Positions 18,854-39,115 of a stretch of 49,713 bases of DNA are shown here, in pieces. The notes beneath the pieces were generated by a model that was given only the letters and a program-made list of their open reading frames with translations, ran no database searches and was not told the origin of the DNA. Source of the stretch: a virus (taxonomy: Duplodnaviria > Heunggongvirae > Uroviricota > Caudoviricetes); the IMG/VR virus record IMGVR_UViG_2529292882_000007; one strand, written 5' to 3'. The number at the start of each line of letters is the position of its first letter. The first letter of the stretch is position 1. The translations under genes were made by a program, and so were the position numbers.

Positions 18854-19046
18854 TCCCCACCTCTTTTGTCACTTCTATACGCCGCTCCGCAGTGGCTTTT
18901 ACGGCGGCTGCATTCTCATTAATGCGCTGCTTTTCAGCTTCATCTTCGGCCTTTTCTCGCCCCTTCATACGACCAAAACCAAACGCACCGAATGCAACCA
19001 ATATAACGGTGCCGATAAATGACAAAACGGCTTTCAAACCAGTCAT
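18768..19046 (-). CDS. i-spanin (Rz-like)
   Basis: N-terminal TM segment then charged coiled region; follows endolysin. Confidence 0.5.
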   Translation of the reverse strand: MTGLKAVLSFIGTVILVAFGAFGFGRMKGREKAEDEAEKQRINENAAAVKATAERRIEVTKEVGNVQQSVNHMADDDVDRELRESWKRPGGG

Positions 19047-19585
19047 ACCACCACTCGCTCTTTCATCCAGCCGTAGACAAACGACTCATTAGCCTCGCGC
19101 TTCTCCGCCAGCTCCAGATAGCGTTCGCCCTGCGTACAGTTCAGCGACGTCAGCATCACCCGTTCGCCGTCTTTTCCCCGATTCCCAAGATAAGCACGTA
19201 GCGCATTAATGGTACGTGGACCGATTCGTCCGTCTGCATCCAAATCGGGATACAGCTTCCCGCGCAGGTTGAACACATTCAGCCAGCGTTGAAGCATTTT
19301 TGACGCCACTGTTGGCCCCATGTTCACCCCCGTGTCACACAGCTCTGCGGCAATATCAGAGGATAATGCGGCCACCTGATCAAAGCGTGGTCCGTACCAG
19401 TAATCAGCCTCAAGGATTTCCAGTGCCTGTTCGCGGGTTAAATCGCGCATATCGCCACGGTATCCATGAGCACGGGCAGTGTTCTGAGTAATGCCCCACT
19501 TTGTTGGGCCTCCCTTGTCGTCAGGGTGATCCACATAGCCGCCCTCTTTTCCAAGAACGCTGTTAAAAATCTCATCTTTGGTCAT
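19043..19585 (-). CDS. Endolysin, GH108-type lysozyme with peptidoglycan-binding domain
   Basis: N-terminal GGYVDHPDDKGGPTKWGIT signature. Confidence 0.7.
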   Translation of the reverse strand: MTKDEIFNSVLGKEGGYVDHPDDKGGPTKWGITQNTARAHGYRGDMRDLTREQALEILEADYWYGPRFDQVAALSSDIAAELCDTGVNMGPTVASKMLQRWLNVFNLRGKLYPDLDADGRIGPRTINALRAYLGNRGKDGERVMLTSLNCTQGERYLELAEKREANESFVYGWMKERVVV

Positions 19586-19868
19586 GATTAAACCCTAATG
19601 CGTCAACTATCCGCGCCAGATTGCCCCTGAAATACAGAACAACGATGCAGATAATCAGATTTCCAATAACCACCAGCCAGTGGGATTCTTGATAAAGACC
19701 GAACACATAACGGAAGGGAACATTGGCGTATACAATGACGTAGATATAAGCCAGAAAGGAAACAAATGGACGATGCCTGGAGTCTTTCCGTCGATAAAGC
19801 ATCAGCGCCATTACTATTACTGTGCAAAGCACCGCATTAATCAGTGCTGACGGGTCACTGCTTACCAT
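19572..19868 (-). CDS. Holin/antiholin-like membrane protein
   Basis: Start ATG 19868 with GGAGGGGG SD; about three TM segments. Confidence 0.45.
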   Translation of the reverse strand: MVSSDPSALINAVLCTVIVMALMLYRRKDSRHRPFVSFLAYIYVIVYANVPFRYVFGLYQESHWLVVIGNLIICIVVLYFRGNLARIVDALGFNHDQR

Positions 19869-20296: not shown

Positions 20297-20637
20297 TCAT
20301 AAAGCAACAAATTACGCGGTAATCGCTTAACGCAGTTTTACTACGTTAAATGAAACACTACACCCAGTTACCACCTAAAACAAGGTTTCCCCATAAAAAA
20401 ACCTTCATATCGTGGTTAATCGATCAATAAAAAAGCAATGTTCAACTTTTTACCAACCGAACATCCCGACCAGGACTTCCATAATATTCGCCGATATGCC
20501 ACTGCTTAAGTTGAGTAATCTTCTCCAACTTAACTCCCATAGAGTCCAGTTTCTGCCATGTTTTCGGTTGTATGTGCTTCATTACCCGCTCTGAATATCT
20601 GAATACTGCTCGTAAGCGCATGGTTTCTCACTACAGC

Positions 20638-23865: not shown

Positions 23866-24933
23866 TCAGGCTTTTAATAGCGATTCTTTCAGATATCGGG
23901 CATCAGCCAGGGCGTTTGGAGTAATCTTGCGAACCCATGCATTACGAGTTGGACTCCACTTAAAGGCGCGTGATTTAAGCAGCGAACGAATGTTTGCCTC
24001 TGGTTTGCCAGGGAAATAAAACAGGATGCGGTTATCCTCTGGATCTATCTCCATAGAAAAGCCGTCGTATTCTTCGCGCTGTGATCCTGTTACAGACTTG
24101 ACCGATTCAAGCTCTTTAATACGGCTCTGTAGTCGTTTGATTTCGGCGTTATTGTTACTCAGTGAGTATGAAGGAAAGCCAATGTGCCCACAGAAATCTC
24201 CGGCGAGTAACTCTTTGGCTTCGCTTTCAGTAAACTCAAGGTCAATTAATGCGGAAAGCTGCTGTAATTGGTCTTTTTTGTATTTGCGAATAGCCTTATT
24301 TGCGGCCTTCATTTTGATGTGTGACTTCATGCAGCCTTGCAGCTTACGAAGCAACTTAAATAGCGCATCAGGATCATCAGACGAAACTCCATTACGGCCG
24401 ACACCTGCGGCTTTGCTTTCGTAGTACGATGCTCTGCTTTCACACTCAACAAACGATTTTCTGAATAACGCATCAGCTTTAGACAAACGGCGGCGATGGC
24501 CTTTCGCGCTATAATGGTCAACTAAAATCGGCTGGCCTAACGGGATCACATCCAACAGTTCATGCGCTCGCTTATGCGCCACCGCACCTTCTTTTCTGGC
24601 TTTTTCTGCACGAGCAATATATCGGGCAAGACGCGCGTTCTGGCGTTCCTGATAGGTATTTACGTAATCATCTCCGCGCTGCTGCTGTTCAAGCCATGCT
24701 TTGCGCAGCTTTTCTGTTACGTCTACCAACTCCGCAGGGATACAACCTGTTTGGGATTCATAAGAGTGACCATCCTCATAAAGACGTCCATCGTCTTCAA
24801 CAAAGAAAAAGGTGTCGTGCTCATCGCTTTTGACCATACGGCCATTAACATGACGTAATCTATAGCCAGTATCAGTGCTTAACAGGCTGTCAGGGTTGTT
24901 GATCCAGTCAGAAATAATTACTTGTTTATTCAT
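23866..24933 (-). CDS. Hypothetical protein (DUF3560-like by recollection), first gene after cassette copy 2
   Basis: Start ATG 24933 directly after shared leader; ORF-track start at 25083 runs through the leader. Confidence 0.45.
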   Translation of the reverse strand: MNKQVIISDWINNPDSLLSTDTGYRLRHVNGRMVKSDEHDTFFFVEDDGRLYEDGHSYESQTGCIPAELVDVTEKLRKAWLEQQQRGDDYVNTYQERQNARLARYIARAEKARKEGAVAHKRAHELLDVIPLGQPILVDHYSAKGHRRRLSKADALFRKSFVECESRASYYESKAAGVGRNGVSSDDPDALFKLLRKLQGCMKSHIKMKAANKAIRKYKKDQLQQLSALIDLEFTESEAKELLAGDFCGHIGFPSYSLSNNNAEIKRLQSRIKELESVKSVTGSQREEYDGFSMEIDPEDNRILFYFPGKPEANIRSLLKSRAFKWSPTRNAWVRKITPNALADARYLKESLLKA

Positions 24934-24939
24934 CAGATT

Positions 24940-25041
24940 TCTCCGGTTTAACCAGGGCGGGTATCGCTCGGTTTCGGGTATAACCTTAGGAAATTTTTTC
25001 CCACCTGTAAAGCACTTTTTATATAAATCTATAATTATATA
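24940..25041 (-). promoter_or_regulatory. Repeated promoter/5' leader cassette, copy 2 (immediately downstream of Q-like gene)
   Basis: Shares about 100 bp with copies 1 and 3. Confidence 0.6.
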
Positions 25042-25103
25042 TTTATAGATTTTCCGATGTTCCCGGTGCCTACAAATCACCAAAACAGCTCAAAATGACA
25101 CTT

Positions 25104-26451: not shown

Positions 26452-26963
26452 TGATGGCCCCCGTCATTTCTGGTGCTTTTCACCGTGCGGCTTCTTAAAA
26501 ACCTGCCATCACGAACAACAGACACTTCTCGTTTACCCAACCTCATTTCACGGCGGTAACATTCAGAAAATGCCTCGTCCGGCATCATATAAATGCGACG
26601 CTTCGCCTCCGTATCCAGAAGGGAACGGCTTGGGGTTACATATAAGAACGACTCATCAATAGGGACAAAACCACGAGCAAGAATTGCTGGCAGAATGCCA
26701 GGAAGAACGCAGAAAACAGCTCCACGATGCAGCAACATCTGGTACTCCATGACCTCCGTTATCCCCGTGACTACTGTTACGGTGTCACGTCTGTTACGGC
26801 TGGCAACCAGTCGCTGCACACGTCCAATTTTCTGATCTACAGATAGATGTTTGCTATCGTTATCAATATGATCGATAACAAATCCTTTAATCGTTTGATC
26901 AAGGTAGTGCACCACCTGCGATTGAATCTGGTGATTATCACCAAAGAAGGCCAGAATCATCAT
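26448..26963 (-). CDS. Hypothetical protein
   Basis: 171-aa ORF. Confidence 0.4.
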   Translation of the reverse strand: MMILAFFGDNHQIQSQVVHYLDQTIKGFVIDHIDNDSKHLSVDQKIGRVQRLVASRNRRDTVTVVTGITEVMEYQMLLHRGAVFCVLPGILPAILARGFVPIDESFLYVTPSRSLLDTEAKRRIYMMPDEAFSECYRREMRLGKREVSVVRDGRFLRSRTVKSTRNDGGHQ

Positions 26964-27454
26964 TCCTCAAGCCTCCCAAGTGCTGAACGCCGGGCGTTGC
27001 TAATCTCCTTATGAATCAGCTCGATATCGCTAGAATCTTTATTCTTAAACTCCAGCACGGCAATCGCATCACGAACCTCTGAAACGGTTACGTGTGAGTG
27101 TTTCCAGCGAGCAATGAATCGCGGACCGCGTAAATTACAACGCTCCGCAGGCATCCCCAGCTCAGAGAAAACCGCTTTCAGCCTTGATAAGCAGTTAACA
27201 GGGAGATTCCCTTTGATCTTGTTCTGCCGAACCGATGTGCCATCGCTACGCTGGCGCTGACGTTCGGCAAAATCTGCCGCCCATTGCTGGACGTTAATCC
27301 GGCCTTCCGAATACGCCACCAGCAGCGTCAGGTTATCCGCACGAGGGAATCTCTCGAAGCGATACCAGGCACCAATCAGTGATGACGTAAAGCCAAACTT
27401 TCTGGCAACACCAATTTGGCCTCCATTCTCGTCAACCCACTCCTGAAAGGTCAT
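26960..27454 (-). CDS. Cro/YdaS-like HTH regulator
   Basis: N-terminal HTH-like GGQIGVARKFGFTSSLIGAWYRF; divergent from CI-like gene. Confidence 0.5.
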   Translation of the reverse strand: MTFQEWVDENGGQIGVARKFGFTSSLIGAWYRFERFPRADNLTLLVAYSEGRINVQQWAADFAERQRQRSDGTSVRQNKIKGNLPVNCLSRLKAVFSELGMPAERCNLRGPRFIARWKHSHVTVSEVRDAIAVLEFKNKDSSDIELIHKEISNARRSALGRLEE

Positions 27455-27472: not shown

Positions 27473-27590
27473 ACCACGATATGTGGTATTAAAACCACAT
27501 ATCGTGAGTTTTTCAATGGGCGAAACAAAAAATAACCTTCTATTTGTGGTCCACCTCTCGTCTTACCATGTGAAAACCACTAAATGTGGT
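27473..27590. promoter_or_regulatory. Operator cluster: ACCAC-N5-GTGGT palindromes O1 27473..27487, O2 27494..27508 (imperfect), O3 27576..27590
   Basis: Three 15-bp inverted repeats in the divergent intergenic region. Confidence 0.6.
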
Positions 27591-27627
27591 AATGTATAAA
27601 TAACCCACCATTCACGATTGATGAGAC

Positions 27628-28284
27628 ATGAAAAGCAACGACGAGAACATCAAGAAAGAAATAGGTCTGCGCATTCAGACTCTACGGAAACAATCCGGCA
27701 TGACTGCCGGAGATCTCCAGCAAGTCACTGGAATAGGCTTAAGCACCTTGCAGAACTATGAGGCCGGATTAAGACAACCATCTATACCTGCCATCAAGAA
27801 AATCGCGCACGCCCTGAAAGCATCAGCGCCTTATATCGCGTGCTTAACAGATAACCCGTTCCCACCCCAGAATACTAACGCTCCTGTTATTCCTGGGCTT
27901 GTAGCTATAAAAAATGACATAGCATCGCACGCCGGAGAAAAGCCAGTGCTGGCGATAGAACAGGAGATTCTACGAAGCAAGAACATCAACCCATCGTCTC
28001 TGTCAGTTCTCCAGAGCAACGATGAGTTAATGTCACCAACAATATCCCCTGGCTCCCAAGTCCTGATTAATACAGACGATACAGAGATTCATGAGGGGAT
28101 CTATGCCCTTGAAGACAGAAATGGCCTGGTTGTTTTGAGGCACTGTAGAGTCATACCGGGTGACAATGCTGTTATGCTGTCAACCGAAAGGGATGCTGAA
28201 ATGAACACTAAGCATCTGAATAACGAGGAATTTAAGCGTTATAAAGTTCTTGGCCGCGTAGTTAGTGTTGTCAACTGGTTATGA
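27628..28284 (+). CDS. CI-like repressor (HTH-XRE plus S24/LexA-like C-terminal domain)
   Basis: N-terminal HTH; C-terminal region with MSP-type Ser motif. Confidence 0.65.
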   Translation: MKSNDENIKKEIGLRIQTLRKQSGMTAGDLQQVTGIGLSTLQNYEAGLRQPSIPAIKKIAHALKASAPYIACLTDNPFPPQNTNAPVIPGLVAIKNDIASHAGEKPVLAIEQEILRSKNINPSSLSVLQSNDELMSPTISPGSQVLINTDDTEIHEGIYALEDRNGLVVLRHCRVIPGDNAVMLSTERDAEMNTKHLNNEEFKRYKVLGRVVSVVNWL

Positions 28285-28326
28285 TACACAGCACGGCGAA
28301 AGCCGTGCATTTCTACGCTCAAAAAA

Positions 28327-28341
28327 ACCACATTTTGTGGT
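28327..28341. promoter_or_regulatory. Operator O4 ACCACattttGTGGT
   Basis: Perfect 15-bp match to operator consensus upstream of ORF 28377. Confidence 0.5.
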
Positions 28342-28376
28342 TTTGACAACATGTAAAAGTATAAAAGAGGCTACGC

Positions 28377-28751
28377 ATGGAATTACATACAGCCAATAAA
28401 AACGAAACTCTGATCACTGCTGGAATCGAAATCCAAGCGTTGAACATAGCGATTGAGTGTATGTTATGCCAAATCATTGATAATGAGAAAGATATCGACT
28501 GGATAGAATCTATCCTTCATCTGGCATCAGAACAAAAAGTCTGCCTCAAAACGGCCTTACAATACGATGTGCCAGCGGTATCGAAGCTGTGCCAGCCATT
28601 AATGGCATATAACAGGGCTATTATTTCTGTATGCCTCATGATTCTTGATGAAAACACCCCTCTTAGCGACCGCTCAGAAGCTGCTCTAACCCTCTCACGT
28701 AAACAGCGACAGCTAGCAAATCAACTGATATCAACGATAGCTGACCTCTGA
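28377..28751 (+). CDS. Hypothetical protein
   Basis: 124-aa ORF followed by hairpin 28755..28775. Confidence 0.4.
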   Translation: MELHTANKNETLITAGIEIQALNIAIECMLCQIIDNEKDIDWIESILHLASEQKVCLKTALQYDVPAVSKLCQPLMAYNRAIISVCLMILDENTPLSDRSEAALTLSRKQRQLANQLISTIADL

Positions 28752-28775
28752 CTGCAAGCGGGCTAACGCCCGCTT

Positions 28776-28878
28776 ATATGATTATAGATTTATATAATTA
28801 TATAAAACGCTTTTCATCCGCCAAAAAGTTGGTTATGCTTACCTCGTTCTATAAATATAGATTTATAGAATTATATAA
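28776..28878. repeat. AT-rich palindromic repeat cluster upstream of parA (candidate centromere/operator)
   Basis: Two blocks containing TATATAATTATATA-like motifs. Confidence 0.45.
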
Positions 28879-28886
28879 CCAAACAC

Positions 28887-29555
28887 ATGGAGTCTCGACA
28901 AATGACTATCTCTGTAGGTATTTTCAACGGAAAAGGCGGCGTAACCAAATCAACAATTGCCCGTGCTTTAGCAGTTGCTTATGCAAAGGCCGGCTGGAAT
29001 GTATGCCTGATCGATATGGATGTGCTTAACGGAACGGTAACGCGTTGGGTACAACGCAGAATGGCCAACAATATCGAACCAGCAATCGCGGCACAGCCGT
29101 GCGGCACACCATCACAAGTCCAGAAAATCATCGAATCAGAAGTATACGACCTGGTTATCGTAGATGGCGGTGCCTACGCATCTGAATCAGTACCGAAGCT
29201 CTCTGAATTTCTGGATATGGTTATTTTGCCAACCAGATTCTCTACCGATGACCTGGAAACCACCGTTAACACAGCTCACGGCATCGTTAAAAAGGGTGTA
29301 CCAATCAAGAAAATTTGCATGGTGTTTTCCGGCGCGGCTGAAAACGAAGCTGACTATATTGAAGCCCAAGAGTACCTGGCTAATACGCCATACTTTGTTG
29401 TCGATAAGTACATTCCCCACAAGCCAGCTCTGAGCAAAGCTCAGGATAAGGGCTTAAGCCTCATTGAGTGCTCATACGTTGCGCCACGCAAAAAGGCAGA
29501 CGACGTTATTCAGGGGATTATCAACCAGCTTGAGGCTCTGACTACTGCCGCGTAA
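28887..29555 (+). CDS. ParA-family partition ATPase (small type Ib, ParF-like); probable start at 28902
   Basis: Deviant Walker A FNGKGGVTKST. Confidence 0.8.
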   Translation: MESRQMTISVGIFNGKGGVTKSTIARALAVAYAKAGWNVCLIDMDVLNGTVTRWVQRRMANNIEPAIAAQPCGTPSQVQKIIESEVYDLVIVDGGAYASESVPKLSEFLDMVILPTRFSTDDLETTVNTAHGIVKKGVPIKKICMVFSGAAENEADYIEAQEYLANTPYFVVDKYIPHKPALSKAQDKGLSLIECSYVAPRKKADDVIQGIINQLEALTTAA

Positions 29556-29598
29556 TATATAATTATAGTTTTATAGATTTATATAAGAGGGGATACAC

Positions 29599-29847
29599 AT
29601 GGCCGCACCATCAAAACCACCAAAGAAGAACAGCAAAGGCGTACCGCCATCGATCGAACAACCGCAGGTTTTCGACCCGACTGAAACGCCAACCAGAACC
29701 AAATCAGGTGGGGCACAAATGGCGTTTAACGTCGACCCTGAATTTAAACGCGAGTACAAAACGTTCGCCAGCTCAATGGATATGTCATTGAAAGAAGTGC
29801 TGACAAAATCTTTTGAGTTACTCAAGGCTCAATACAACCAGAAGTAA
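29599..29847 (+). CDS. Putative ParG-like ribbon-helix-helix centromere-binding protein
   Basis: 82 aa, basic/Pro-rich N-terminal tail, RHH-like C-terminal region; immediately downstream of parA. Confidence 0.45.
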   Translation: MAAPSKPPKKNSKGVPPSIEQPQVFDPTETPTRTKSGGAQMAFNVDPEFKREYKTFASSMDMSLKEVLTKSFELLKAQYNQK

Positions 29848-29876
29848 GAGAAGGTGACGGCCTCCAGCGCCAACTG

Positions 29877-30059
29877 TTGGCCGTCGCGACACAACAAGGG
29901 GAATTTGTTATGTCCGAACAACAATATACACGGTTACTGAAAACTCGTCTAACCGACCTCAAACGGCTGCAAGCTGGTTGCTTATTTGCCCTGCTATCTA
30001 CCAGGCCAGAATGGGTACGTGAAGCAGTTCTGAAAGGCTTAATGCGCTCCAGCGTTTAA
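29877..30059 (+). CDS. Hypothetical small protein
   Basis: ORF track; probable start at internal Met. Confidence 0.3.
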   Translation: MAVATQQGEFVMSEQQYTRLLKTRLTDLKRLQAGCLFALLSTRPEWVREAVLKGLMRSSV

Positions 30060-30069
30060 ATTCAACCAT

Positions 30070-30091
30070 AAAAAAGGCCCCCGAAGGGGCC
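30070..30091. terminator. Hairpin terminator between convergent small genes
   Basis: GGCCCC cgaa GGGGCC stem with flanking A-run/T-run. Confidence 0.55.
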
Positions 30092-30097
30092 TAATCG

Positions 30098-30220
30098 CTA
30101 CTTGCTGCTAATGTTTATCGTCACATTCAGAGCGTTATCAGTAATCTTCCAACCCTCCCCATGTGGCGTAAACAAAGCTCCAGTAACAACGATAAAAATA
30201 CACATGTAGTATTTTTTCAT
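30098..30220 (-). CDS. Small hydrophobic peptide (40 aa)
   Basis: MKKYYMCIFIVVTGALF...; AAGGG SD upstream of ATG 30220; strong terminator downstream. Confidence 0.35.
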   Translation of the reverse strand: MKKYYMCIFIVVTGALFTPHGEGWKITDNALNVTINISSK

Positions 30221-30606
30221 TGTGTGGCCCTTACAGGCCGTTTCACGGCATCCCCACCGACGAAAATGACGCGAGAGCAAGCACGCTGTTTGTGCCTGCG
30301 TGGTACGGCAAGTGGATAATCCTTTCCTGAAAGTCAGTGCCCGGGTGCGAATCGGCGGAAAGGCCCCAAGCCATATTACACGTCATACCCTTCATAATGA
30401 AGGAATAAAAAACGCTTTTATTACATAAGATTACACGTAAATAAGTTAAAAACCTTCATTTTGCATGAGCTAATGAGCTAAATTTTTTTATATGAATAGT
30501 GGACTATTCACCTCAGTTGGGTAAGAATGTAGTTGCTGTTTGTGCTTGCGTGGTTGTATTTATACAACAACGTAATGCTGAAAGGACCGCGAATCCGATC
30601 AGCACG

Positions 30607-30638
30607 AAAGAACCGTCCTCAAAAGGACGGTTTTTTTG
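30607..30638. terminator. Hairpin terminator at 3' end of HTH regulator gene
   Basis: CCGTCCT caaa AGGACGG stem plus T7 run. Confidence 0.5.
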
Positions 30639-31191
30639 TTTCTTCACTCATTAAAAACCGTCCAAGACCTGTTGATGACTCCAGATAATCTCGATTATCC
30701 ATATCAGCACCGTTATCGACCCAATGTCTATATGCTTCATTGCAACAATACATTACAGCAGTTGGAGTAACAGGGAAGCCGCCCCCAAATGAGAATCCCA
30801 TTGAGCTAATGCTAATTCTTTCGAATGGCCTATTTCTCAATGCTTCAAACCCCTTACTGTTGAAGTAACTCAGCATCAGAGGCAAAAGGTTATCCTCGTC
30901 CTGATCGATTGTTCCCGGGAAAAAGTAGTAACCACAGCGATTAAATTCGGGAATCAGTTTTTCTACCAACAACATGAAATTCATTGGGCTAATATTAAGG
31001 GCAGAGCAAGCACCAAAAAGAGCATCAACCGTTAATACAGACTGCCCGTTCTCTATCTTTGTCCATGCGTTTGGTGTTTTTCCAGCCGCTTGAGCCAGCA
31101 CTCCTTGATGCACACCTCTTTCTAGCCTAAGTTCTTTTATGATCATTAGGTGAATTGTTGAAAAACATGAGTTTTTTGACAGTTCAGTCAT
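30619..31191 (-). CDS. HTH-XRE regulator (putative immunity repressor) with unknown C-terminal domain
   Basis: N-terminal HTH-like LERGVHQGVLAQAAGKTPNAWTKIENG; divergent from antirepressor operon. Confidence 0.5.
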   Translation of the reverse strand: MTELSKNSCFSTIHLMIIKELRLERGVHQGVLAQAAGKTPNAWTKIENGQSVLTVDALFGACSALNISPMNFMLLVEKLIPEFNRCGYYFFPGTIDQDEDNLLPLMLSYFNSKGFEALRNRPFERISISSMGFSFGGGFPVTPTAVMYCCNEAYRHWVDNGADMDNRDYLESSTGLGRFLMSEETKKPSF

Positions 31192-31260
31192 TTTTTACCT
31201 CCTCTGCATTAAATTCACTACCAATTTCCATTCTCAAAAGAAACCACATCCAATACAATG

Positions 31261-31388
31261 AAGTTCCCTACATTCAAATCATACCCAAAAAATTGGATTC
31301 GAAGCAACTTTTTTCAACAAAAAATCACGTTAAGTTCCCAATACTCATGTTAAAGTTCCTTACATTCACATAAGATTCCCAAAATTCA
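31261..31388. promoter_or_regulatory. Four direct repeats AAGTTCC-N3-CAWTCA (operator-like array)
   Basis: Repeats at about 31261..31276, 31332..31347, 31353..31368, 31372..31388. Confidence 0.5.
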
Positions 31389-31479
31389 CTATCAAACAAA
31401 TTTGATTGGTCAAATCATGCGCTTAATGAGCAGAAAATTCCGTTTTTCAAACCCACGCTATGTGGTTGTCTCTGTTAAA

Positions 31480-31720
31480 ATCCCGCCGTATTGACATGAA
31501 TGCGCCATTGGTGGACACTTTCCGAGCCGTAGCAAAATCTACGGTCGGGATTAGCCTCCTGAATAACACGATGGCGCATACCGCGTTAGCGGTTTTTTTT
31601 ATGCGTAGAGCACTGTTACGCCCAAATTATGGTGGGTCGTACAGGGGCGGAGAAATCCGCGCCGGTTCGTCATTGTGTCCGGTAAGGCTAACCCTGTACG
31701 GCTCACCACCATTTGATTAG
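31480..31720 (+). ncRNA. Candidate structured regulatory RNA/leader upstream of the small-ORF/antirepressor operon
   Basis: TTGACA at 31491..31496; hairpin plus T8 at 31580..31600; long-range stem 31631..31646 with 31692..31710. Confidence 0.3.
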
Positions 31721-31762
31721 CCTCGAATGGCGGTGATAGTTCCATATACTGGAGATATCACA

Positions 31763-31954
31763 ATGACAAACCTACCCCATGACTATTACGTCAACCTCGT
31801 AAAGATCCTTCTCAAGAAAGCCTCATACGCCGATAAATTCCGCCTGGCTGAAATCATCGAGCGCGAAGCTATGCGCATCGCCAGCAACGATAACGCTGTT
31901 TCTGACGCAAAAATCTCCCTCGTAACCAAAGTAGTTATGGGAGGTGCAAAATGA
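31763..31954 (+). CDS. Small protein upstream of antirepressor (Icd-like position)
   Basis: ATG 31763 with GGAG SD; 63 aa; stop overlaps antirepressor start. Confidence 0.4.
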   Translation: MTNLPHDYYVNLVKILLKKASYADKFRLAEIIEREAMRIASNDNAVSDAKISLVTKVVMGGAK

Positions 31955-33102
31955 AAACGCTTCCGATCCTTAACACCCTACAGCCTATCCTGCATAATCA
32001 GATTCCAGTAATCACAACTGAGCTACTCGCCCGCCTTTATGGAACAGAAGCAATCCGTATACAGCAAAATCACCATGAAAATAAAACTCGGTTCATTGAG
32101 GGGAAGCACTTCTTTAAAGCTGTTGGTGATGAACTCAAAAATTTGCGACTAGTTTTAAACGAGTCACAAAATGAAGTGCAAATTTCCCCCAAAACTCGCT
32201 CTCTCATCCTCTGGACAGAACGCGGGGCTGCACGTCATGCCAAAATGCTTGAAACTAACCAAGCGTGGGATGTGTTCGAACGGCTGGAAGACAGCTATTT
32301 CAACCAGAACGCGCAAACGGCCGCGACCGTTACCGTCTCGCCAGACAATGCTCGTGAGGTTGTCGATACGCTCAACGCCAAACCGATGTTTTACATTAAG
32401 GTGTGCAACAACGAGCCACTCACAACCTCAGCCGATGTTGCCCAGGCATTCAGCACCACAAACAATTCCATCGTTATGGCCATCGATGCGTTACGCATTC
32501 CTCGCACGGCTGCGGCGCGTCACTTCTTTAAAGAACAACGACCGCTGGAAGGAAGCGACCGCGAAATAACAATCTATCGCATGACAAAAGACGGATTTAC
32601 CTTGCTCATGGAGAGCATCGACGGACCAGGCGTAAAAGATATCAAGCTGGCCTACATTGAGGCCTTTAACGCTATCAGCAGCGTGTTAAAAACACAGTAC
32701 GAGCGTGATCTGGCTAAACGACTGTACCAGGAAAAAACGATTATCCGCGCGGCAACAGAGCACAATCGGCTACTAACGGAACCGAACTACAGGAAGGAAC
32801 TAATCAAGGAGTTTGACAAGGCAACGGGGAAAACCAAAGCGGCGCTAAGTCTGCCAGCAATGACTCAGGAAAATGTGATATCAGCCTTACTTCTTGATCT
32901 GCTCAGAAACGCCAGAGCACTGATCAGCTTTGACGAAAACCTGAATCCTCAGCTCAAGCTACTACCACCGACAGGCAAAGTAGTCGACCAGGCAGATCAC
33001 AACAGCATACTCAGCGTACTGGATGCAAACCTACCAGCCAGGACACTACAGGAACTGATAAAGATATCTGCGGATAAACTGGCCGCAGGTGCAAAACCAT
33101 AA
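31951..33102 (+). CDS. Putative antirepressor (Ant-like N-terminal domain)
   Basis: 383 aa; N-terminal region ITTELLARLYGTE...GKHFFKAVG...LWTERGAARHAKMLETNQAW. Confidence 0.45.
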   Translation: MKTLPILNTLQPILHNQIPVITTELLARLYGTEAIRIQQNHHENKTRFIEGKHFFKAVGDELKNLRLVLNESQNEVQISPKTRSLILWTERGAARHAKMLETNQAWDVFERLEDSYFNQNAQTAATVTVSPDNAREVVDTLNAKPMFYIKVCNNEPLTTSADVAQAFSTTNNSIVMAIDALRIPRTAAARHFFKEQRPLEGSDREITIYRMTKDGFTLLMESIDGPGVKDIKLAYIEAFNAISSVLKTQYERDLAKRLYQEKTIIRAATEHNRLLTEPNYRKELIKEFDKATGKTKAALSLPAMTQENVISALLLDLLRNARALISFDENLNPQLKLLPPTGKVVDQADHNSILSVLDANLPARTLQELIKISADKLAAGAKP

Positions 33103-33136
33103 AACAAAGCGCCCGATTTGGGCGCTTCTTCAATTC

Positions 33137-33772
33137 TTAATATTTCGGTGTAATCAGTAGCGACACGTGCCCTGATTTGTCACGAGAAACGTAATACTCG
33201 CCTCTCTTAGTCTTAAACTCAGCTTTCTGCGTATCAGATTTAACAATCTGCTCTAACTGCGCGATCACTGTGTCTCTATCACTTGATGCATCCAAGACTT
33301 CAACAGCTACGGCCATAGAAAGCAAGGAATCAGAGCTAGGCTTAGATACTCGCCATAATAACTCTGAAATCTTCCCATCCTTATCAACTCTAGCTCGACC
33401 GTTAACAGATGAGTTGATGGCAAATTCAACTGTGTTGTTACCTTGTTTAACTGACTTAATTCTTATAGCGGAGGTGGATTTTCCTGATGTAGCGATACCT
33501 TCAAGGTCATCATTATATAGCTGCTTAAACTTATCTACGGTCACACCATCGAAAGCAGCTCCGGTAGTAGCCGTAGTGCCGGAGTCTTCTGGTATCAAGG
33601 CCACAGCCGCAAGAGTATTAACAACAACAAAAGTAGCAATCCCAAGAAACCCACTCACTAAAACAGCTTTGAACTTACTACCAGAAGATGAGCCACATTG
33701 TTTCCGATATGCACCACGAACTACGAAGAAACACAAAATCAGGCTAATAATAAACGCCACCAGCATCCCCAT
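33137..33772 (-). CDS. Membrane-anchored protein with periplasmic domain
   Basis: Two N-terminal TM segments. Confidence 0.45.
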   Translation of the reverse strand: MGMLVAFIISLILCFFVVRGAYRKQCGSSSGSKFKAVLVSGFLGIATFVVVNTLAAVALIPEDSGTTATTGAAFDGVTVDKFKQLYNDDLEGIATSGKSTSAIRIKSVKQGNNTVEFAINSSVNGRARVDKDGKISELLWRVSKPSSDSLLSMAVAVEVLDASSDRDTVIAQLEQIVKSDTQKAEFKTKRGEYYVSRDKSGHVSLLITPKY

Positions 33773-34336
33773 AGAAATCTCCTTTTAGATATAAGGGTAA
33801 AGCAATATCGTATTGGATCTTCCTTTAGACACAACCCCCCCTCCCCCCATACAGGGTGCCCTTTACCGGAGTTCCGGCCCCTTCTCAAAAGCATCAAAAA
33901 AAGCTCGAGATCGAGTACCGGAACTCATGCCACCAGATAGCTCCACATCGTTTCCAATGCTTCGCCGCCGTGTGCGCCCTGTGGCCCACAATCATGCCAT
34001 TGGTCGTCTGATATACCTTCTTCTGCTCATTGAGCACAGGCGAGTTGTCGCACTCCTGCCTTTCTCAGACTCGACTTAGTTTAGATCGCTGTTCCTAGCT
34101 TGCGTCAGCACACTTTCCCCTTGTACGCATACCCGCGCGCCACTCCGCCCAAAAACACCGAACCCAACGAAGTGGCAAAGACAACGACGCGAGCGTGAGT
34201 CTGAAACAGGCACCAGTAAAAAAGGGGTTGCAGGCGCAAAAAGATTTGATTATCTTTAGACGCAAGAAAGCCGCCCCAATCAAGAGGTGTCTTTTTAAAT
34301 CCAGCCTACCAAGCAAGATTTAAATTTCAGACTGAA

Positions 34337-34362
34337 AACCGCCCGGCAAGGCGGTTTTTGTC
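34337..34362 (+). terminator. Intrinsic terminator, plus-strand orientation
   Basis: ACCGCC cggcaa GGCGGT stem followed by TTTTTGTCTTTC. Confidence 0.5.
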
Positions 34363-34407
34363 TTTCTGGCGCTTACATTACACCACCATAAAACGATCCG
34401 TAAAGGA

Positions 34408-34680
34408 TCATTTGATCCCTTGTTCCAATTCTGACGACACTTTAACCTTTTCCCATACAAGGGTTTGCAGCCTTAACAGAATCGCATCTTTATCAAGGTG
34501 TGAAAGATCCTTAACCATATCGTCAAACGACAGAACGCGAATGGCCATCTCAATGACCCTCGGCGGCTCCCCCTTCTCATATCGCTTATATGTAGCCAAC
34601 GATATCCCAAATTCTTCGGCGGCTCGCTCCTGCGTCCAGTTCATCCCACGACGCCATAATTTCAATTCATAACCCGTCAT
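34408..34680 (-). CDS. HTH-XRE DNA-binding protein (Aca-like position)
   Basis: Start ATG 34680 with GAGGAGGA SD; HTH-like WTQERAAEEFGISLATYKRYEKG. Confidence 0.55.
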   Translation of the reverse strand: MTGYELKLWRRGMNWTQERAAEEFGISLATYKRYEKGEPPRVIEMAIRVLSFDDMVKDLSHLDKDAILLRLQTLVWEKVKVSSELEQGIK

Positions 34681-34743
34681 AGCATCCTCCTCGCACAATA
34701 TTAACACTCGCAAAGTGTCAAAATGACACTTTGCGCATTGTGT

Positions 34744-35124
34744 TTACTTAACGAGGAATAAAAATGGTTTATTGTTCGGCGGTGTAATCGGGGCTGGCTC
34801 GCTTTTGCTCATGCGATCAGTGTACCAGGCCAGCTCCTTGTCAAAGTAAGCCTGATTAAAATAGGCCATGAATGTAGTTTCAAATCCATAACGACCGCTA
34901 ATACGCAGCATCTGATTGCCGTTCTCTGTTTCCAGATATACCTGGGCACGTTCCTGATTCTCCTTCAGCCAGGTTAAAGCCTCATCGCACGAGGACACAC
35001 GATACTCATCATCGTAGCCGTCATCGATGCGGCTTGAAGAAGAACGGCAAATCACGCCAACAGAACCAGCCAGGATAGTTTGAATTTTAAGGAAAGCGTT
35101 TTTGCGGATTTTAATCATGCTCAT
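34744..35124 (-). CDS. Hypothetical protein, first gene after cassette copy 3
   Basis: ATG 35124 after GGAGATAACCCG leader. Confidence 0.5.
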   Translation of the reverse strand: MSMIKIRKNAFLKIQTILAGSVGVICRSSSSRIDDGYDDEYRVSSCDEALTWLKENQERAQVYLETENGNQMLRISGRYGFETTFMAYFNQAYFDKELAWYTDRMSKSEPAPITPPNNKPFLFLVK

Positions 35125-35242
35125 CGGGTTATCTCCGGTTTAACCAGGGCGGGTATCGCTCGGTTTCGGGTATAACCATAGGAATTTTTTTCCCACCTGT
35201 AAAGCACTTTTTATATAAATATATAATTATATAATTCTATGA
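35121..35242 (-). promoter_or_regulatory. Repeated promoter/5' leader cassette, copy 3
   Basis: About 96 percent identical to 17387..17508. Confidence 0.6.
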
Positions 35243-35244
35243 AC

Positions 35245-35273
35245 ACAAAAAAGCCCCTTTGCAACAGGGGCTT
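35245..35273 (-). terminator. Intrinsic terminator after toxin-antitoxin operon
   Basis: AAGCCCCT ttgcaac AGGGGCTT stem with U-run on minus transcript. Confidence 0.6.
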
Positions 35274-35287
35274 ATCATTCGTTCAGA

Positions 35288-35587
35288 TCAGATGTTAAAC
35301 GCTATTCGTTTTCCTGTGGGAAGCTCAACATCCAAGCTTAATTTGCCTCCCATAGCTTCAACGTAACGCTTTAATGTCGCCAGCTTTAAATCATTTCCGC
35401 GCTGCTCCAGCTTTGTTACTGCTGGCTGGCTTATACCCATCGCCTCAGCAACCTGTTTTTGTGATAACTGGAGTTCTTCACGCATCATCTGCAAGCCGAC
35501 CTCAAGAATCATCTCATCTGCCATTTCTTTAATTCGCGCCTGGCTTTCAGGTGAACGGCTGGCAATCACCTCATCTAATGTTCTCAT
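35288..35587 (-). CDS. HTH-XRE antitoxin (HigA-like)
   Basis: HTH-like LQLSQKQVAEAMGISQPAVTKLE; downstream of and overlapping toxin gene. Confidence 0.55.
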   Translation of the reverse strand: MRTLDEVIASRSPESQARIKEMADEMILEVGLQMMREELQLSQKQVAEAMGISQPAVTKLEQRGNDLKLATLKRYVEAMGGKLSLDVELPTGKRIAFNI

Positions 35588-35940
35588 TACTTGCTCTCCA
35601 GTGTGTTCAGATGTGCTGCAAACTCATCCTCAGCTATACGCACCAGTTTTTCATAAAACCGTTTATCGTTACTTTTGTCTCCTGCACAAAGAACGATGGC
35701 CCGGCGAATCGGATCGAACGCATAAAAGGCTCTTATCGGACGGCCAGAAAACTGAACGCGAAGCTCTTTCATATTTTTGTACCGAGAACCTTTTACGGTA
35801 TCGGCATATGGCCTGGGTAACTCAGGTCCGTAAACCTGTAGCTTTTTCAAATCAGCCAAAACCTTTTCCTGAAGAGCGTCTTCTTGCTCATTTAGCCAGT
35901 CGTCAAATCGCTGGCTAAAAAGTACCGTCCACATGCTCAA
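35587..35940 (-). CDS. RelE/HigB-like toxin (Gp49-like addiction module killer)
   Basis: 117 aa; gene order toxin then antitoxin with 1-nt overlap. Confidence 0.5.
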   Translation of the reverse strand: MSMWTVLFSQRFDDWLNEQEDALQEKVLADLKKLQVYGPELPRPYADTVKGSRYKNMKELRVQFSGRPIRAFYAFDPIRRAIVLCAGDKSNDKRFYEKLVRIAEDEFAAHLNTLESK

Positions 35941-36178
35941 TCCTATAACCTGTAGTTTATATCACTAACTATATAACCTGTGGGTTATAATTTCAAGAAA
36001 AACGGGGCTATTTAACATAATGGACGTTATCGGCACCACCGGATCACCGTTCATTGTCGGATCTAAAAAATCCGCTCAAAAGATCATGTTTTCCTGGGCG
36101 TTTTCCACCGTTTTTTATGTTGCTTATTTGTTAATGAAATCTCGTTTTCAGTTTCGCCTCATTTTCGACGCGAAAGCC

Positions 36179-36469
36179 CTATTTTTGTGACTTTACTCCT
36201 GGCATATGGACTTCCCAGCGACGAATCCCCATAGCTGCGCAAAAATCAGCCACATAATTCAATCCCGCCCATTCGCGGATACCACCACGGGCTTTTTCAA
36301 TGAAAACGGCAATCCCTTTTTTATTGAGAGCAAAAAGCCGCCAGCTTTTTGTCACTTCGTCCTGGGTAGCCACAACACAAGTGAAAGCTCCCATGCGATA
36401 CAGGTCCAAGAACTCTTTGCGTGTTTTGCGTACAAGTTCCATAACAAACCTCATATTTGCATGTTTCAA
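36179..36469 (-). CDS. Hypothetical protein
   Basis: 96 aa; 4-nt overlap with upstream gene. Confidence 0.35.
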   Translation of the reverse strand: MKHANMRFVMELVRKTRKEFLDLYRMGAFTCVVATQDEVTKSWRLFALNKKGIAVFIEKARGGIREWAGLNYVADFCAAMGIRRWEVHMPGVKSQK

Positions 36470-36765
36470 ACATCTGTTTTGTTATCAATGAAGATTAACC
36501 CTAACCCAGCGAAGTAACACAGCAGCGCCCAGGCTGCATACGGAATGCTGGATCTGGATGTGGACTCCTTTAACATCTGCCAGTTGCGAACATTGCGACT
36601 ATCTTTTAAGCCAAGTTTTTTGGCCAACTGCGAGCCGCTCATTCCGGTCAGGCCAATGACTGCCCGAACTTCTCCACATGTAGGAGATTCCCATTCATCC
36701 GCTTTTTTTAAACAAGCCGGATTCAACATTTTTAAAACAGTATCTTTATCCATAACCATCTCCAT
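36466..36765 (-). CDS. Hypothetical protein, possible DNA-binding
   Basis: 99 aa; HTH-like GMSGSQLAKKLGLKDSRNVRNWQ. Confidence 0.35.
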   Translation of the reverse strand: MEMVMDKDTVLKMLNPACLKKADEWESPTCGEVRAVIGLTGMSGSQLAKKLGLKDSRNVRNWQMLKESTSRSSIPYAAWALLCYFAGLGLIFIDNKTDV

Positions 36766-36779
36766 TTATTATATCTACG

Positions 36780-37396
36780 ATGGTAGGAAATCTTTTCCTA
36801 CGTGGCAATAGAAATTTACTACATTGCGTATAAGACAAGTTTTCTATGTCTAATAGGAAATGATGTTTCTTACGTTTTATCGCGTTCTGATGGCTACTGT
36901 GTGCGTATTTATCGACGTTTATTGATAAGGCTCGCCCCTTCCTCCTGCAAAGCCCGGCCGTAGGCCTTATTTCGGCCTTATATAAATTGATTTTGTATAG
37001 TTCGAAACGCGCCGTTTCGAAAAGGATGATCAGGCTGCTCCATGCCTCCGGCAAGTGCCGGAGGAGGTATATTTGAGCGTAGCGACTCGAACCGGCGCGA
37101 GCTTTAGCTCGCTGCAAGGGCGAACATATTCACAGGCAAAGCCTGCGTAAGTTAAATAAAGAAAGTTTTAATAAAAGAAAGTGATTTTGCATTTATTTGT
37201 TTAGTGCATCTATTATAAAAAACCATTTGCATATACATATCAAAACTGTGGATAACTTTATTAGCCGATGCCTGTAAAGGCGATATTTTTGCTGTGTTCA
37301 GGTTTAGAGAAAATTAATTTAGATTGTTTTTTGAACAGATATTTTATTGCGACGTAGATAATCCTCCGGTAAAACCGGATTCATCATTCAGGTGGG
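36780..37396. other. Putative replication origin region downstream of repA
   Basis: DnaA box TGTGGATAA at 37247..37255; AT-rich 37130..37330; palindromes at 37001..37021, 37045..37064, 37097..37112. Confidence 0.45.
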
Positions 37397-38245
37397 TTAA
37401 TGTTGGAGTGATTTCCAGGTCTTTCTTAGCCTGTTATAACGCTGCTCAACGAGGGAGCGTAAATATGCAAGGTCAGCACCAGGATACATGCCATCAGCAA
37501 ATTCCTGGCTAACCTCTCTAGTGATTTGATGACGAAGTTCGGCCTCTCCCTTTTCCTGAACAAGACGCGCAGCTCTCTCCGCTGCTTTCTGTTTTGCCTT
37601 TATCTCTCTGGCCGTCTTCCTCTGACGCCATACATTCTCCATCTGCTCCTGAATAACAATACGCTTATAATCAGCCTCCGTTATCGCTTTTTTAAGCCGT
37701 TCGCTATTCTTCGCATTGAAGTAATTAAGTTTCTGGCTAACCGCACGTCTCCATGCTTGTTCAGTAATACCAACTGTTTCCAGCAGTTGATCACGAATCT
37801 CGATTTTCGCTGGCCAATACTGTTTATTCACCCGATCCCAGCGACGTTCATAATCAATAAAACCTAACTCTTTCAGTTGCGACAACGCCCTTGTACAGCG
37901 CGTTATAGACTTGTTCCCAGCTTCGGATACGGTAGACAGGCCGCAAAAATCAGCCAACGCCTCAGCACTGGCCAGAACCCGCTTAGAAATGATGTTTACA
38001 TGGTGCAAAATCGCAGCAATCACAGCATTAATCGCCCGACGACGATGCTCGTTTATCCGGCGTTTCCGCTCTGACGGTTGATTAACGTAGAACGCAACCT
38101 CACACGTAAGATCACGACCATTAATGCGCTGTAAAGCATCAGATAACACCAGCGGCAGCTTGTGCGTATGGTGCTTTGGAGGCTGGAACTCCGGCGACAA
38201 ATTACAAACGTAAGCTGAACGTAGAGACGGCATTGGTCTATCCAT
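37397..38245 (-). CDS. repA: Replication initiator RepA, IncFII RepA1-like (ORF track extends to alternative start 38389)
   Basis: Segment RRRAINAVIA...GNKSITRCTRALSQLKELGFIDYE resembles IncFII RepA1 RRRAIDALLQ...GKLSITRATRALTFLSELGLITYQ. Confidence 0.7.
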   Translation of the reverse strand: MDRPMPSLRSAYVCNLSPEFQPPKHHTHKLPLVLSDALQRINGRDLTCEVAFYVNQPSERKRRINEHRRRAINAVIAAILHHVNIISKRVLASAEALADFCGLSTVSEAGNKSITRCTRALSQLKELGFIDYERRWDRVNKQYWPAKIEIRDQLLETVGITEQAWRRAVSQKLNYFNAKNSERLKKAITEADYKRIVIQEQMENVWRQRKTAREIKAKQKAAERAARLVQEKGEAELRHQITREVSQEFADGMYPGADLAYLRSLVEQRYNRLRKTWKSLQH

Positions 38246-38289
38246 ATGTTCGCTCTTGCGTCCACGGAAAACCAACGTATAATGGGAGT

Positions 38290-38372
38290 TGTCGAGGCGC
38301 CCATGGTTAGTTGTTGGTTTTCCTTTCCGTGGATGTCGCAAGAAGCCCGCAGATTTATCTGCGGGCTTTTTG
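38290..38372 (+). ncRNA. Predicted CopA-like antisense RNA complementary to the repA leader
   Basis: Promoter -35 TTGCGT 38256..38261, 16-nt spacer, -10 TATAAT 38278..38283; terminator hairpin 38343..38371 with T-run. Confidence 0.5.
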
Positions 38373-38415
38373 TTTCCATATCTGGTCACTTTTCAACCAG
38401 ACACCCACAATCATA

Positions 38416-38430
38416 ACCACGTTACGTGGT
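38416..38430. promoter_or_regulatory. ACCACgttacGTGGT operator-like palindrome in repA upstream region
   Basis: Matches operator consensus seen at the CI/Cro intergenic region. Confidence 0.4.
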
Positions 38431-38560
38431 TTTAAGAGAACTCTACCACAACACTTTCGGTCATGCACGAAGTCTCTCACTGATCGAACGATAATCCACC
38501 AGTAAAAGGATCTAAATTGGATCTCGTTTTGCGAGCATCATACTACTGGCCTAACTCCAG

Positions 38561-39115
38561 TCAATGATTCCCAGCCGGAAACCTGCGGTAAAGCGTGGAT
38601 AAGGTAACATCGAAGATAATCGCTATCCGCTTACGTGAAACACCATTCGCAATAAGCCTTCCGATCTGTTCCCATTGCTCTGGTGCCAGTTTTGAGCGGC
38701 GTCCTCCTATCCTGCCGTTAGCCCTTGCCACCGCCAATCCTGCACGCGTTCTTTCAATCATATTTTCCCGCTCCATCTCTGCGACTGCACTCAGCATCGT
38801 GTAGGCAAAGCGGCCAATTGAAGTGCTAATTTTTATCCCTTCCGTAATCGAAATAAACTCAATGTTGTTTGATAAAAAATGGTTAAGTAAATCAACAAGA
38901 TGAATCAGAGAACGCCCCATTCGGTCCAGCTTCCAGACAATAACCGTATCGCCCGGTCGTAACACCTTCAGTAGCTTATCAAGTCCTGGTCGTTTTGATT
39001 TAGCACCGGATATTTTATCTTCAAAAATCCGGTCACATCCTGAACTCCTGAGCGCCTCCAGTTGTAATTCCAAATTCTGGTCAAAAGTTGACACCCTCGC
39101 ATAACCATATTGCAT
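38561..39115 (-). CDS. Serine DNA invertase (Hin/Gin/Cin/Pin family)
   Basis: N-terminal YARVSTFDQ catalytic motif; VWKLDRMGRS; C-terminal HTH; adjacent to invertible segment. Confidence 0.9.
   Translation of the reverse strand: MQYGYARVSTFDQNLELQLEALRSSGCDRIFEDKISGAKSKRPGLDKLLKVLRPGDTVIVWKLDRMGRSLIHLVDLLNHFLSNNIEFISITEGIKISTSIGRFAYTMLSAVAEMERENMIERTRAGLAVARANGRIGGRRSKLAPEQWEQIGRLIANGVSRKRIAIIFDVTLSTLYRRFPAGNH

Follow-up and report, generated by a model that had tools for sequence, protein, structure and literature searches.

A candidate phage-repressor operator in the repA leader of a phage-plasmid with an IncFII-family replicon

The 49,713-nucleotide stretch of viral DNA analyzed here (IMG/VR record IMGVR_UViG_2529292882_000007, Caudoviricetes; hereafter the window) represents a phage-plasmid that encodes both a CI-like helix-turn-helix (HTH) repressor and RepA, an initiator of plasmid replication that belongs to the IncFII family. 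An earlier note on this DNA pointed to a 15-bp palindrome, ACCAC-N5-GTGGT, that recurs in the immunity region, upstream of an accessory gene, and upstream of repA, and it suggested that the phage repressor gates the latter two genes as well. Our analysis makes it likely that the palindrome is the operator of the CI-like repressor and that bound repressor would block a promoter of repA, designated P2, in lysogeny, such that loss of the repressor would boost RepA. One repressor probably sets both the dormancy of the phage and the copy number of the plasmid. The suggestion of gating gains support from the recovery of the sites by a matrix in five lineages, from sites in more distant lineages, and from a conserved promoter element that adjoins the repA site. 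The comparisons of sequence demonstrate that the motif is enriched and conserved in position, and they provide the assignment of protein families and a predicted RNA structure; from them we infer binding by this particular repressor, the activity and start sites of the promoters, and how strongly and in which direction repA would respond.

The candidate operator motif and the immunity region

An exact scan of the window for the perfect palindrome ACCACNNNNNGTGGT (ACCAC-N5-GTGGT) returned four sites, located at positions 27473–27487, 27576–27590, 28327–28341, and 38416–38430. The expectation was 0.01 site, and none of 100 dinucleotide shuffles contained four or more. When one mismatch was allowed, four further matches appeared (0.65 expected). 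Three of these, at 15298, 43070, and 47100, score poorly with the matrix and agree with the number predicted by chance; only the fourth, at 31452, looks real. A 21-bp matrix assigned scores of 20.9–31.6 to six sites that we designate O1–O6, whereas no score in 100 simulated windows exceeded 18.7; two of the six, at 27494 and 31452, stood outside the training set. By either measure, the motif is more frequent in the window than chance predicts. In the related plasmid p25POL-A, all six homologous sites are intergenic, for which the chance is ~4 × 10−5 considering that 18.5% of the plasmid is non-coding. We assign a negligible probability to the idea that the sites are a chance occurrence or a functionless repeat. 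The motif is short, and nothing else favors chance; the four perfect sites, their intergenic location in p25POL-A, and the retention of position across lineages while the spacers vary (see below) all stand against it.

O1, O2, and O3 lie within the 173-bp intergenic region between the repressor gene (27628–28284, plus strand) and the first gene of the leftward early operon (26960–27454, minus strand). Three palindromes had been reported for this region. Two are perfect (O1, 27473–27487, ACCACGATATGTGGT; O3, 27576–27590, ACCACTAAATGTGGT), whereas the third (O2, 27494–27508, ACCACATATCGTGAG) contains two mismatches and has a matrix score of 23.2. A predicted early-lytic promoter, TTGAAA-17-TTTAAT (27488–27516, minus strand; −35 at 27516–27511 and −10 at 27493–27488), can be read from the sequence; the consensus promoter scanner did not list it. 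O2 fills the 17-nucleotide spacer of this promoter, and O1 directly follows the −10 element and covers the predicted start site. The centers of O1 and O2 are separated by 21 bp, which corresponds to two helical turns, and the pair is kept in all lineages that we compared. This arrangement over a predicted promoter is the classic layout for tight repression. O3, which lies 37 nucleotides upstream of the repressor gene, appears to overlap the spacer of a weak candidate promoter (TGAAAA-18-TATAAA). The overall layout, with two sites over the predicted early promoter and one proximal to the repressor gene, is kept in all lineages, as is a terminator-like hairpin (GCACGGC-GAAA-GCCGTGC; 28291–28308, plus strand) that follows the repressor gene.

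The repressor contains 218 amino acids and consists of an XRE-type HTH (Pfam HTH_3, 4.5e-11) and a degenerate S24-like C-terminal domain. Along its entire length, the protein also matches PHROG 4, “transcriptional repressor” (1e-26). The match to Peptidase_S24 is weak, with 18.4 bits falling under the cut-off of 23.3. As in lambda-type switches, divergent genes are combined with multiple operators over both promoters; the Ser/Lys dyad of S24 peptidases is lacking. Indeed, an alignment of 24 family members that share 28–67% identity revealed no invariant Ser or Lys within residues 100–218, and for this reason a LexA-like, self-cleaving repressor is unlikely. This conclusion derives from the absence of invariant residues rather than from an aligned active site; comparing profiles of the repressor and LexA gave no significant match, whether 3 or 24 sequences were used. 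The position usually occupied by a G-D-S-M motif reads D-E-L-M in this family. The C-terminal domain is probably a dead peptidase fold used for oligomerization.

The first gene of the early operon had been labeled Cro-like, a label that amounts to a guess from position. Its 164-amino-acid product has no Pfam match even at E = 10 and falls into PHROG 7452, to which no function is assigned. An AlphaFold2 model of low confidence (mean predicted local distance difference test score of 67) predicts an all-helical N-terminus; the best matches of the model in the PDB are Cro proteins, with non-significant E values above 0.6. No second initiator or helicase was recognized in the early operon. Further along, the operon encodes a DUF3560 protein (23866–25083, minus strand), the C-terminal half of which matches PHROG 19458, “primase” (5e-36); apart from RepA, no other match suggestive of replication was obtained.

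The repA leader

O6 (38416–38430, ACCACGTTACGTGGT) is the fourth perfect palindrome and is located, as previously stated, in the upstream region of repA, 171–185 nucleotides before the likely start codon of the gene (ATG 38245, minus strand). repA (37397–38245, minus strand) encodes a protein of 282 amino acids that aligns with Pfam IncFII_repA (PF02387) at 3.2e-44, covering profile positions 2–272 of 275, and that is ~33% identical to classical IncFII RepA over ~45% of its length. The open reading frame (ORF) that extends from 37397 to 38389 is longer than the real gene; the Pfam alignment begins at ATG 38245, and repA of Salmonella and Citrobacter relatives is called from the matching position (277 amino acids each). 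RefSeq lists repA of the Escherichia coli plasmids with ~326 amino acids, which places the start inside the leader and crosses the terminator of the antisense RNA described below.

Two promoters are predicted for repA. The upstream promoter P1 (TTGACT-16-TATGAT; 38537–38564, minus strand) matches the consensus at 10 of 12 positions, and the conserved block of sequence begins exactly at P1 even where the upstream gene differs. The downstream promoter P2 consists of an extended −10 element, TGgTAGAGT (38440–38448, minus strand), for which we infer promoter function. In an alignment of six diverged lineages, T.TG.TA.AGT is invariant and lies immediately upstream of the operator. O6 spans positions ~+3 to +18 with respect to the predicted start of P2, so bound repressor should block this promoter. 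The position of O6 is kept in seven lineages, and ~170 nucleotides of leader separate the operator from the ATG. A TATGAT sequence that abuts the operator was considered as an alternative −10 element and rejected because it is not conserved; the Salmonella and Citrobacter relatives have TATGAA or AAGAAT at this place.

The leader also appears to specify an antisense RNA. A promoter on the plus strand (TTGCGT-16-TATAAT, 38256–38283) is predicted to direct synthesis of a countertranscript (~38290–38375) composed of stem-loop I and an intrinsic terminator. This RNA of ~85 nucleotides folds with a predicted free energy of −40.6 kcal/mol (z = −5.7), and its −10 element and terminator are kept in all lineages. 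An Rfam search of the repA leader returned no family at threshold and no CopA, with sub-threshold matches to generic stem-loops and terminators only. Among E. coli plasmids that are otherwise 96–100% identical, the loop of antisense stem-loop I (~38296–38320) is hypervariable, with both insertions or deletions and substitutions; the operator, P1, and P2 are invariant in the same plasmids. Hypervariability would be expected if the loop sets the specificity of incompatibility or copy control. The ~90 nucleotides between P1 and P2 contain no ORF the size of CopB; the only ORF, which begins with GTG and has 41 amino acids, overlaps the operator. For a non-phage comparison we examined L005, a conjugative Enterobacter plasmid whose RepA is 36% identical. 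It has a small upstream ORF and lacks an ACCAC-N5-GTGGT site.

GATC sites are present at 38482, 38509, and 38520, between P1 and P2. Every lineage has retained a GATCC-N6-GATC pair, and GATC sites are similarly clustered upstream of repA in L005. The cluster may reflect control that is sensitive to Dam and SeqA.

The location of O6 within transcribed DNA raises an alternative in which positions 38416–38430 act as RNA. In the repA leader, the palindrome would fold into a 5-bp hairpin close to the 5′ end and influence mRNA stability or pairing with the antisense RNA, and its likeness to the operators of the switch would be secondary. The segment would be transcribed from P1 and probably from P2, and control of IncFII-type plasmids is largely RNA-based. 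Nevertheless, we judge this possibility very improbable. The homologous sites of Serratia-type relatives, ACCCCGAAATGTGGT and CTCCCAATTTGTGGT, pair poorly as RNA yet resemble the DNA operators of their own lineage; the same 15-mer design recurs at non-homologous promoters; and the stretch to which the predicted antisense RNA is complementary does not include O6.

A second alternative concerns the protein that uses the site. Cro and CI share operators in lambda-type switches, and the repA site could be used mainly by the 164-amino-acid early protein or another lytic regulator that turns down or otherwise modulates repA in lytic growth, as opposed to gating it in lysogeny. The helical N-terminus predicted for the early protein and the non-significant ranking of Cro folds at the top of its structural matches fit such a role. 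We nonetheless find it unlikely: the protein belongs to no recognizable DNA-binding family, we found no alternative initiator that might assume replication during the lytic phase, and Cro of phiKO2, the only tested analog, binds a single operator and not the operators at repA (PMC4997575).

Conservation across lineages

Relatives of the element were gathered from plasmid, viral, and assembly collections. Together with the E. coli form represented by the window, four of them make up the enteric lineages: those of Salmonella (L003), Yokenella (L018), and Citrobacter (L029), with repressors that are 65%, 62%, and ~61% identical to that of the window, respectively, and that of Enterobacter (L031), whose early 164-amino-acid protein is 75% identical. 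Repressors of two Serratia-type relatives (L004 and L024) are 32–33% identical, and those of a distant lineage (L020–L023) are 28–31% identical.

A comparative matrix was built from three lineages and trained only on those sites that lie between the repressor gene and the early gene. This switch-only matrix found the same locations in all five enteric lineages. The repA site received scores of 28.8 in E. coli, 23.9 in Salmonella, 22.6 in Citrobacter, and 22.6 in Enterobacter. Its spacers read GTTAC, GTTGT, or GATGT in the enteric lineages, and all ten bases of the half-sites are invariant. In the alignment of repA leaders from six lineages, the invariant columns comprise the P2 −10 element, part of the operator, and the −10 element and terminator of the antisense RNA.

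The more diverged relatives provide additional support. Sites in the repA leaders of the Serratia-type relatives (ACCACATTTCGGGGT and ACCACAAATTGGGAG) occupy the homologous spot and resemble the operators of their own lineage. When these plasmids were scanned with a matrix built only from the switch sites of their lineage, the repA-leader site ranked second in L004 and first in L024 among matches outside the training set, with 5e-4 and 1.7e-3 matches, respectively, expected in the 60-bp target. In the more diverged relatives, the switch operators read ACYAC-N5-GNGNN. The repA leaders of L020 and L021 both contain ACTACAAAACGTAGC at the corresponding position.

L021 exhibits an unusual arrangement at positions 18039–19760, in which a truncated repA (158 amino acids) is followed by a different, full-length repA (292 amino acids, 59% identical to that of the window). 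Both genes lie behind a single leader, operator, and antisense region, which suggests an exchange of replicons in which the control region was retained.

Other sites of the motif

O4 (28327–28341, ACCACATTTTGTGGT) is a perfect palindrome that ends 35 nucleotides before the ATG of orf124 (28377–28751, plus strand), the accessory gene named in the earlier note. All five enteric lineages have the site, with half-sites that never vary and spacers of six different sequences, and it is always found between a terminator and the next start codon. The product of orf124 has no Pfam match and falls into PHROG 7632, to which no function is assigned; a convincing sigma-70 promoter for the gene was not definable from the sequence. 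The gene is monocistronic and insulated, with the terminator of the repressor gene upstream and its own terminator downstream, before parA. The parA promoter region is separate and flanked by AT-rich repeats. Because the terminators insulate orf124 on both sides and the parA promoter is separate, O4 would concern orf124 alone. Within 28752–28886, the orf124 terminator is followed by AT-rich repeats that flank the parA promoter region and have the form TATAGATTTATA(T/G)AATTATATAA; these repeats are probably the centromere or operator of the partition system.

O5 (31452–31466, CCCACGCTATGTGGT), a conserved site missed by the earlier note, is an operator-like sequence with one mismatch and the lowest of the six matrix scores (20.9, against the null maximum of 18.7). 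It lies upstream of an antirepressor module similar to immI of phage P1 (31526–33102, plus strand). The module contains isrK (31526–31599; Rfam, 65.7 bits), the C4 antisense RNA (31625–31713; Rfam, 70.8 bits), an icd-like ORF of 75 amino acids (31727–31954), and ant, which encodes an ORF6N/Rha antirepressor of 383 amino acids (31951–33102; Pfam ORF6N, 3e-20; Phage_pRha, 3.5e-12). All six relatives scanned contain isrK and C4 except the Serratia-type L024, which gave no match. O5 is found 26 nucleotides upstream of the −35 element of the promoter for isrK, C4, icd, and ant (TTGACA-17-GACACT). In the window, Yokenella, Citrobacter, and Enterobacter, it precedes the 5′ end of isrK by exactly 60 nucleotides despite unrelated flanking sequences. 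It is present in four of five enteric lineages and absent from L003 (Salmonella) and from L020. Between the isrK promoter and a divergent gene for a 190-amino-acid HTH regulator (30619–31191, minus strand), three to four direct repeats of ~19 nucleotides (TAAAGTTCCTTACATTCAC-like; 31259–31389) are candidate binding sites for that regulator.

The half-site reported in the lysis leader is present as the degenerate operator ACCACGATATGAAGG (20402–20416, minus strand), but taken alone it is not significant; its score is 12–13 (12.2 in the genome-wide scan, with 0.14 match expected per window). ACCAC-N5-GAAGG with variable spacers is kept in five of five enteric lineages, ~39 nucleotides upstream of a weak −10 element (TGTAGT). 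In L020–L023, a strong operator covers the −35 element of the homologous lysis promoter (TGgTATAGT), and a second, weaker copy lies ~40 bp upstream. Downstream of the weak −10 element, the lysis-operon leader of the window (20300–20400, minus strand) contains a conserved stem-loop (AACGTAG-TAAAA-CTGCGTT). By analogy, this layout recalls the late-promoter and antitermination leaders of lambdoid phages.

The distribution of these sites bears on another possibility: that the operators are real and the distal ones (28327, 31452, and 38416) serve mainly as anchors for looping and cooperative binding that stabilize the switch, as OL and OR do in lambda, and not to regulate the genes next to them. 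O4 is only ~0.75 kb from the switch, O5 does not overlap the isrK promoter, and each distal site stands alone, in contrast to the pair spaced by 21 bp in the switch; moreover, long-range cooperativity was raised as an open question for phiKO2 (PMC4997575). We consider this explanation improbable. The repA site lies 10.8 kb from the switch and maintains a fixed register with the TGnTAGAGT block in every lineage, for which a mere anchor would have no need, and the orf124 site invariably falls between a terminator and the next start codon.

The element and its relatives

Several observations define the element. A 14-kb stretch around the operators is ~97% identical to the records of Yersinia phages vB_YpM_39, vB_YpM_41, and vB_YpM_44 (~49 kb), all three of which name Y. 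pestis EV76-CN as the host; the vB_YpM_39 record is circular. Dozens of E. coli plasmids of 46–52 kb also match, including the 48.5-kb plasmid of ATCC 25922. The repA leader has 77 matches in 71 of 5426 complete E. coli genomes, every one on plasmids of 47–50 kb and none on a chromosome. The window encodes both ParA and RepA, as determined with Pfam. The RefSeq annotation of p25POL-A lists a myovirus-type tail, a lambda-like head module, a lysis cassette, an early operon, and an HTH repressor, as well as ParA, toxin–antitoxin genes, an invertible tail-fiber segment, and a gene named repA. The restriction to plasmids, the near-identical records deposited as phages, and the combination of phage and plasmid genes in p25POL-A together establish that the element is a phage-plasmid, namely a plasmid prophage of ~48 kb with a contractile tail.

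The family is not among the ten typed groups of phage-plasmids (PMC12977533). We found no paper on vB_YpM_39 or on regulation in this plasmid family. pSLy3 was considered as a member and rejected, being an SSU5-type element. A profile search of genome contigs with an alignment of ParA returned only unrelated ParA genes.

Other features of the window accompany this plasmid and phage gene content. A Hin/Cin-type invertase gene (38561–39115, minus strand) adjoins oppositely oriented genes for tail fibers and tail-fiber assembly (39.1–41 kb) whose counterparts in Mu, D108, and P2-like phages are 86–97% identical; this invertible host-range segment directly abuts the replicon. A full-length match to ryfA RNA (Rfam, 134.6 bits; 30070–30368, minus strand) lies between the partition genes and the antirepressor region, and ryfA also occurs in the Yokenella and Enterobacter relatives. 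Loci of the ryfA type are presumably linked to a small toxic peptide, and ryfA may be a maintenance module here. A tRNA gene (Rfam, 67 bits; 18402–18474, minus strand) is kept in the same two relatives. The window also encodes an MT-A70 methyltransferase.

Discussion

The arrangement of promoters and operator in the repA leader suggests a model for how the element could connect plasmid maintenance to phage dormancy. In lysogeny, repressor bound at O6 would occlude P2. RepA would then be supplied only by read-through from P1, damped by the antisense RNA, and copy number would remain low. P2 would become active once the repressor is inactivated, or upon entry into a new host cell, and the resulting rise in RepA would increase replication to support establishment or lytic growth. 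The repressor would most likely be inactivated by the Ant antirepressor of the immI-like module, as expected for a repressor family without a conserved Ser/Lys pair. RepA may also drive lytic replication, since no second initiator or helicase is apparent among the early genes. According to this model, the repressor does the job of CopB in IncFII replicons of the R1 type and that of CB at repA of N15.

Several points weigh against the proposal that the repressor controls repA through P2. P2 has no good −35 element, and the consensus scanner reported P1 only. Were P2 the sole functional promoter, the plasmid could not be maintained under tight repression, and for this reason the model assumes leaky read-through from P1 across an occupied operator. 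The primase-PHROG match of the DUF3560 protein implies that RepA may not be the only replication function encoded by the phage. Support from the diverged relatives has limits. Plasmid-wide, the Serratia-type repA site is not significant, with 0.42 match scoring at least 15.2 expected by chance, and the repA site of the L020 lineage scores 11.3 with its own matrix and ranks approximately tenth. Finally, O5 does not overlap the mapped isrK promoter and would thus not be a simple occlusion site, which implies that not every site is a simple occlusion operator.

The closest known systems are N15, phiKO2, and PY54. In these phages, copy number is lowered by the CB repressor, which recognizes three operators in the switch together with two OL operators at the repA promoter; binding has been proven for N15 and phiKO2 (PMC4997575). 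The window element resembles them in being a plasmid prophage with several operators between the repressor gene and a divergent early gene, probable antirepressor-based control, a repressor that is unlikely to be LexA-like, and, as judged from sequence, an operator at the repA promoter. What is shared is the logic, not the repressor, operator, replicon class, or form of the genome. N15 is a siphovirus with a linear plasmid that ends in telomeres, whereas the public records of the present family are circular and its virion is of the myovirus type; no protelomerase appears in the annotation of p25POL-A. RepA of N15 is a large, multidomain protein of the primase type, whereas RepA of the window belongs to the IncFII family, has 282 amino acids, and is accompanied by a predicted antisense RNA. 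N15 operators are 16 bp in length (T-A-N10-T-A) with two at repA, in contrast to the single ACCAC-N5-GTGGT site downstream of the −10 element described here.

Likeness to the IncFII plasmids R1 and R100 lies in the replicon itself: an IncFII_repA initiator, predicted tandem promoters of which the downstream one has a candidate repressor site, and a predicted short countertranscript with a stem-loop and terminator in the leader. In R1, CopB represses the downstream repA promoter while the upstream promoter reads through, and the dosage of the repressor gene follows copy number. Dosage of the phage repressor gene would also follow copy number in the window element, and so the repressor could sense copy number as CopB does. 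The two systems differ in that no copB lies between the promoters here; the putative repressor site is a phage operator, the gene for the repressor lies in the immunity region at a distance of 10 kb, and the predicted antisense RNA lacks an Rfam match to CopA. It is tempting to speculate that the phage repressor replaced CopB as the copy-number-sensing repressor of an antisense-controlled, IncFII-type replicon, with one RepA and origin serving both modes and a single 15-bp operator at P2 acting as the switch between plasmid and phage. We hold this extended scheme tentatively, as a serious possibility rather than an expectation.

Phage P1 offers a third comparison. Its C1 repressor binds 22 dispersed operators, including those that control RepL (PMC8546580). 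Like phage P1, the window element is a plasmid prophage with operators dispersed at units for replication, late or lysis functions, and the antirepressor (PMC8546580), and it contains a C4, icd-like, and antirepressor module of the immI type. The operator of phage P1 is an asymmetric 17-mer (ATTGCTCTAATAAATTT) bound by the unrelated C1, whereas that of the window is a 15-bp palindrome paired with an XRE-type HTH repressor, and there are ~7 operator sites rather than 22. C1 controls repL, a lytic replicon that is separate from the plasmid replicon; in the window element, one replicon appears to serve both purposes.

Phage-plasmids frequently carry accessory genes and genes for resistance, and to our knowledge the switching between plasmid and phage replication is understood in detail only for phage P1 and N15. 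The family described here is present in ~1.3% of complete E. coli genomes, including that of the reference strain ATCC 25922. If its repressor indeed gates the IncFII-type replicon, loss or inactivation of the repressor would increase the dosage of any gene carried on these elements, and the family would provide a compact, testable case in which the copy-number repressor native to a plasmid has been replaced by a phage module. Because N15 already demonstrates the principle, the finding would extend known biology rather than overturn it. Here the N15-like design would be joined to a different, IncFII-type replicon.

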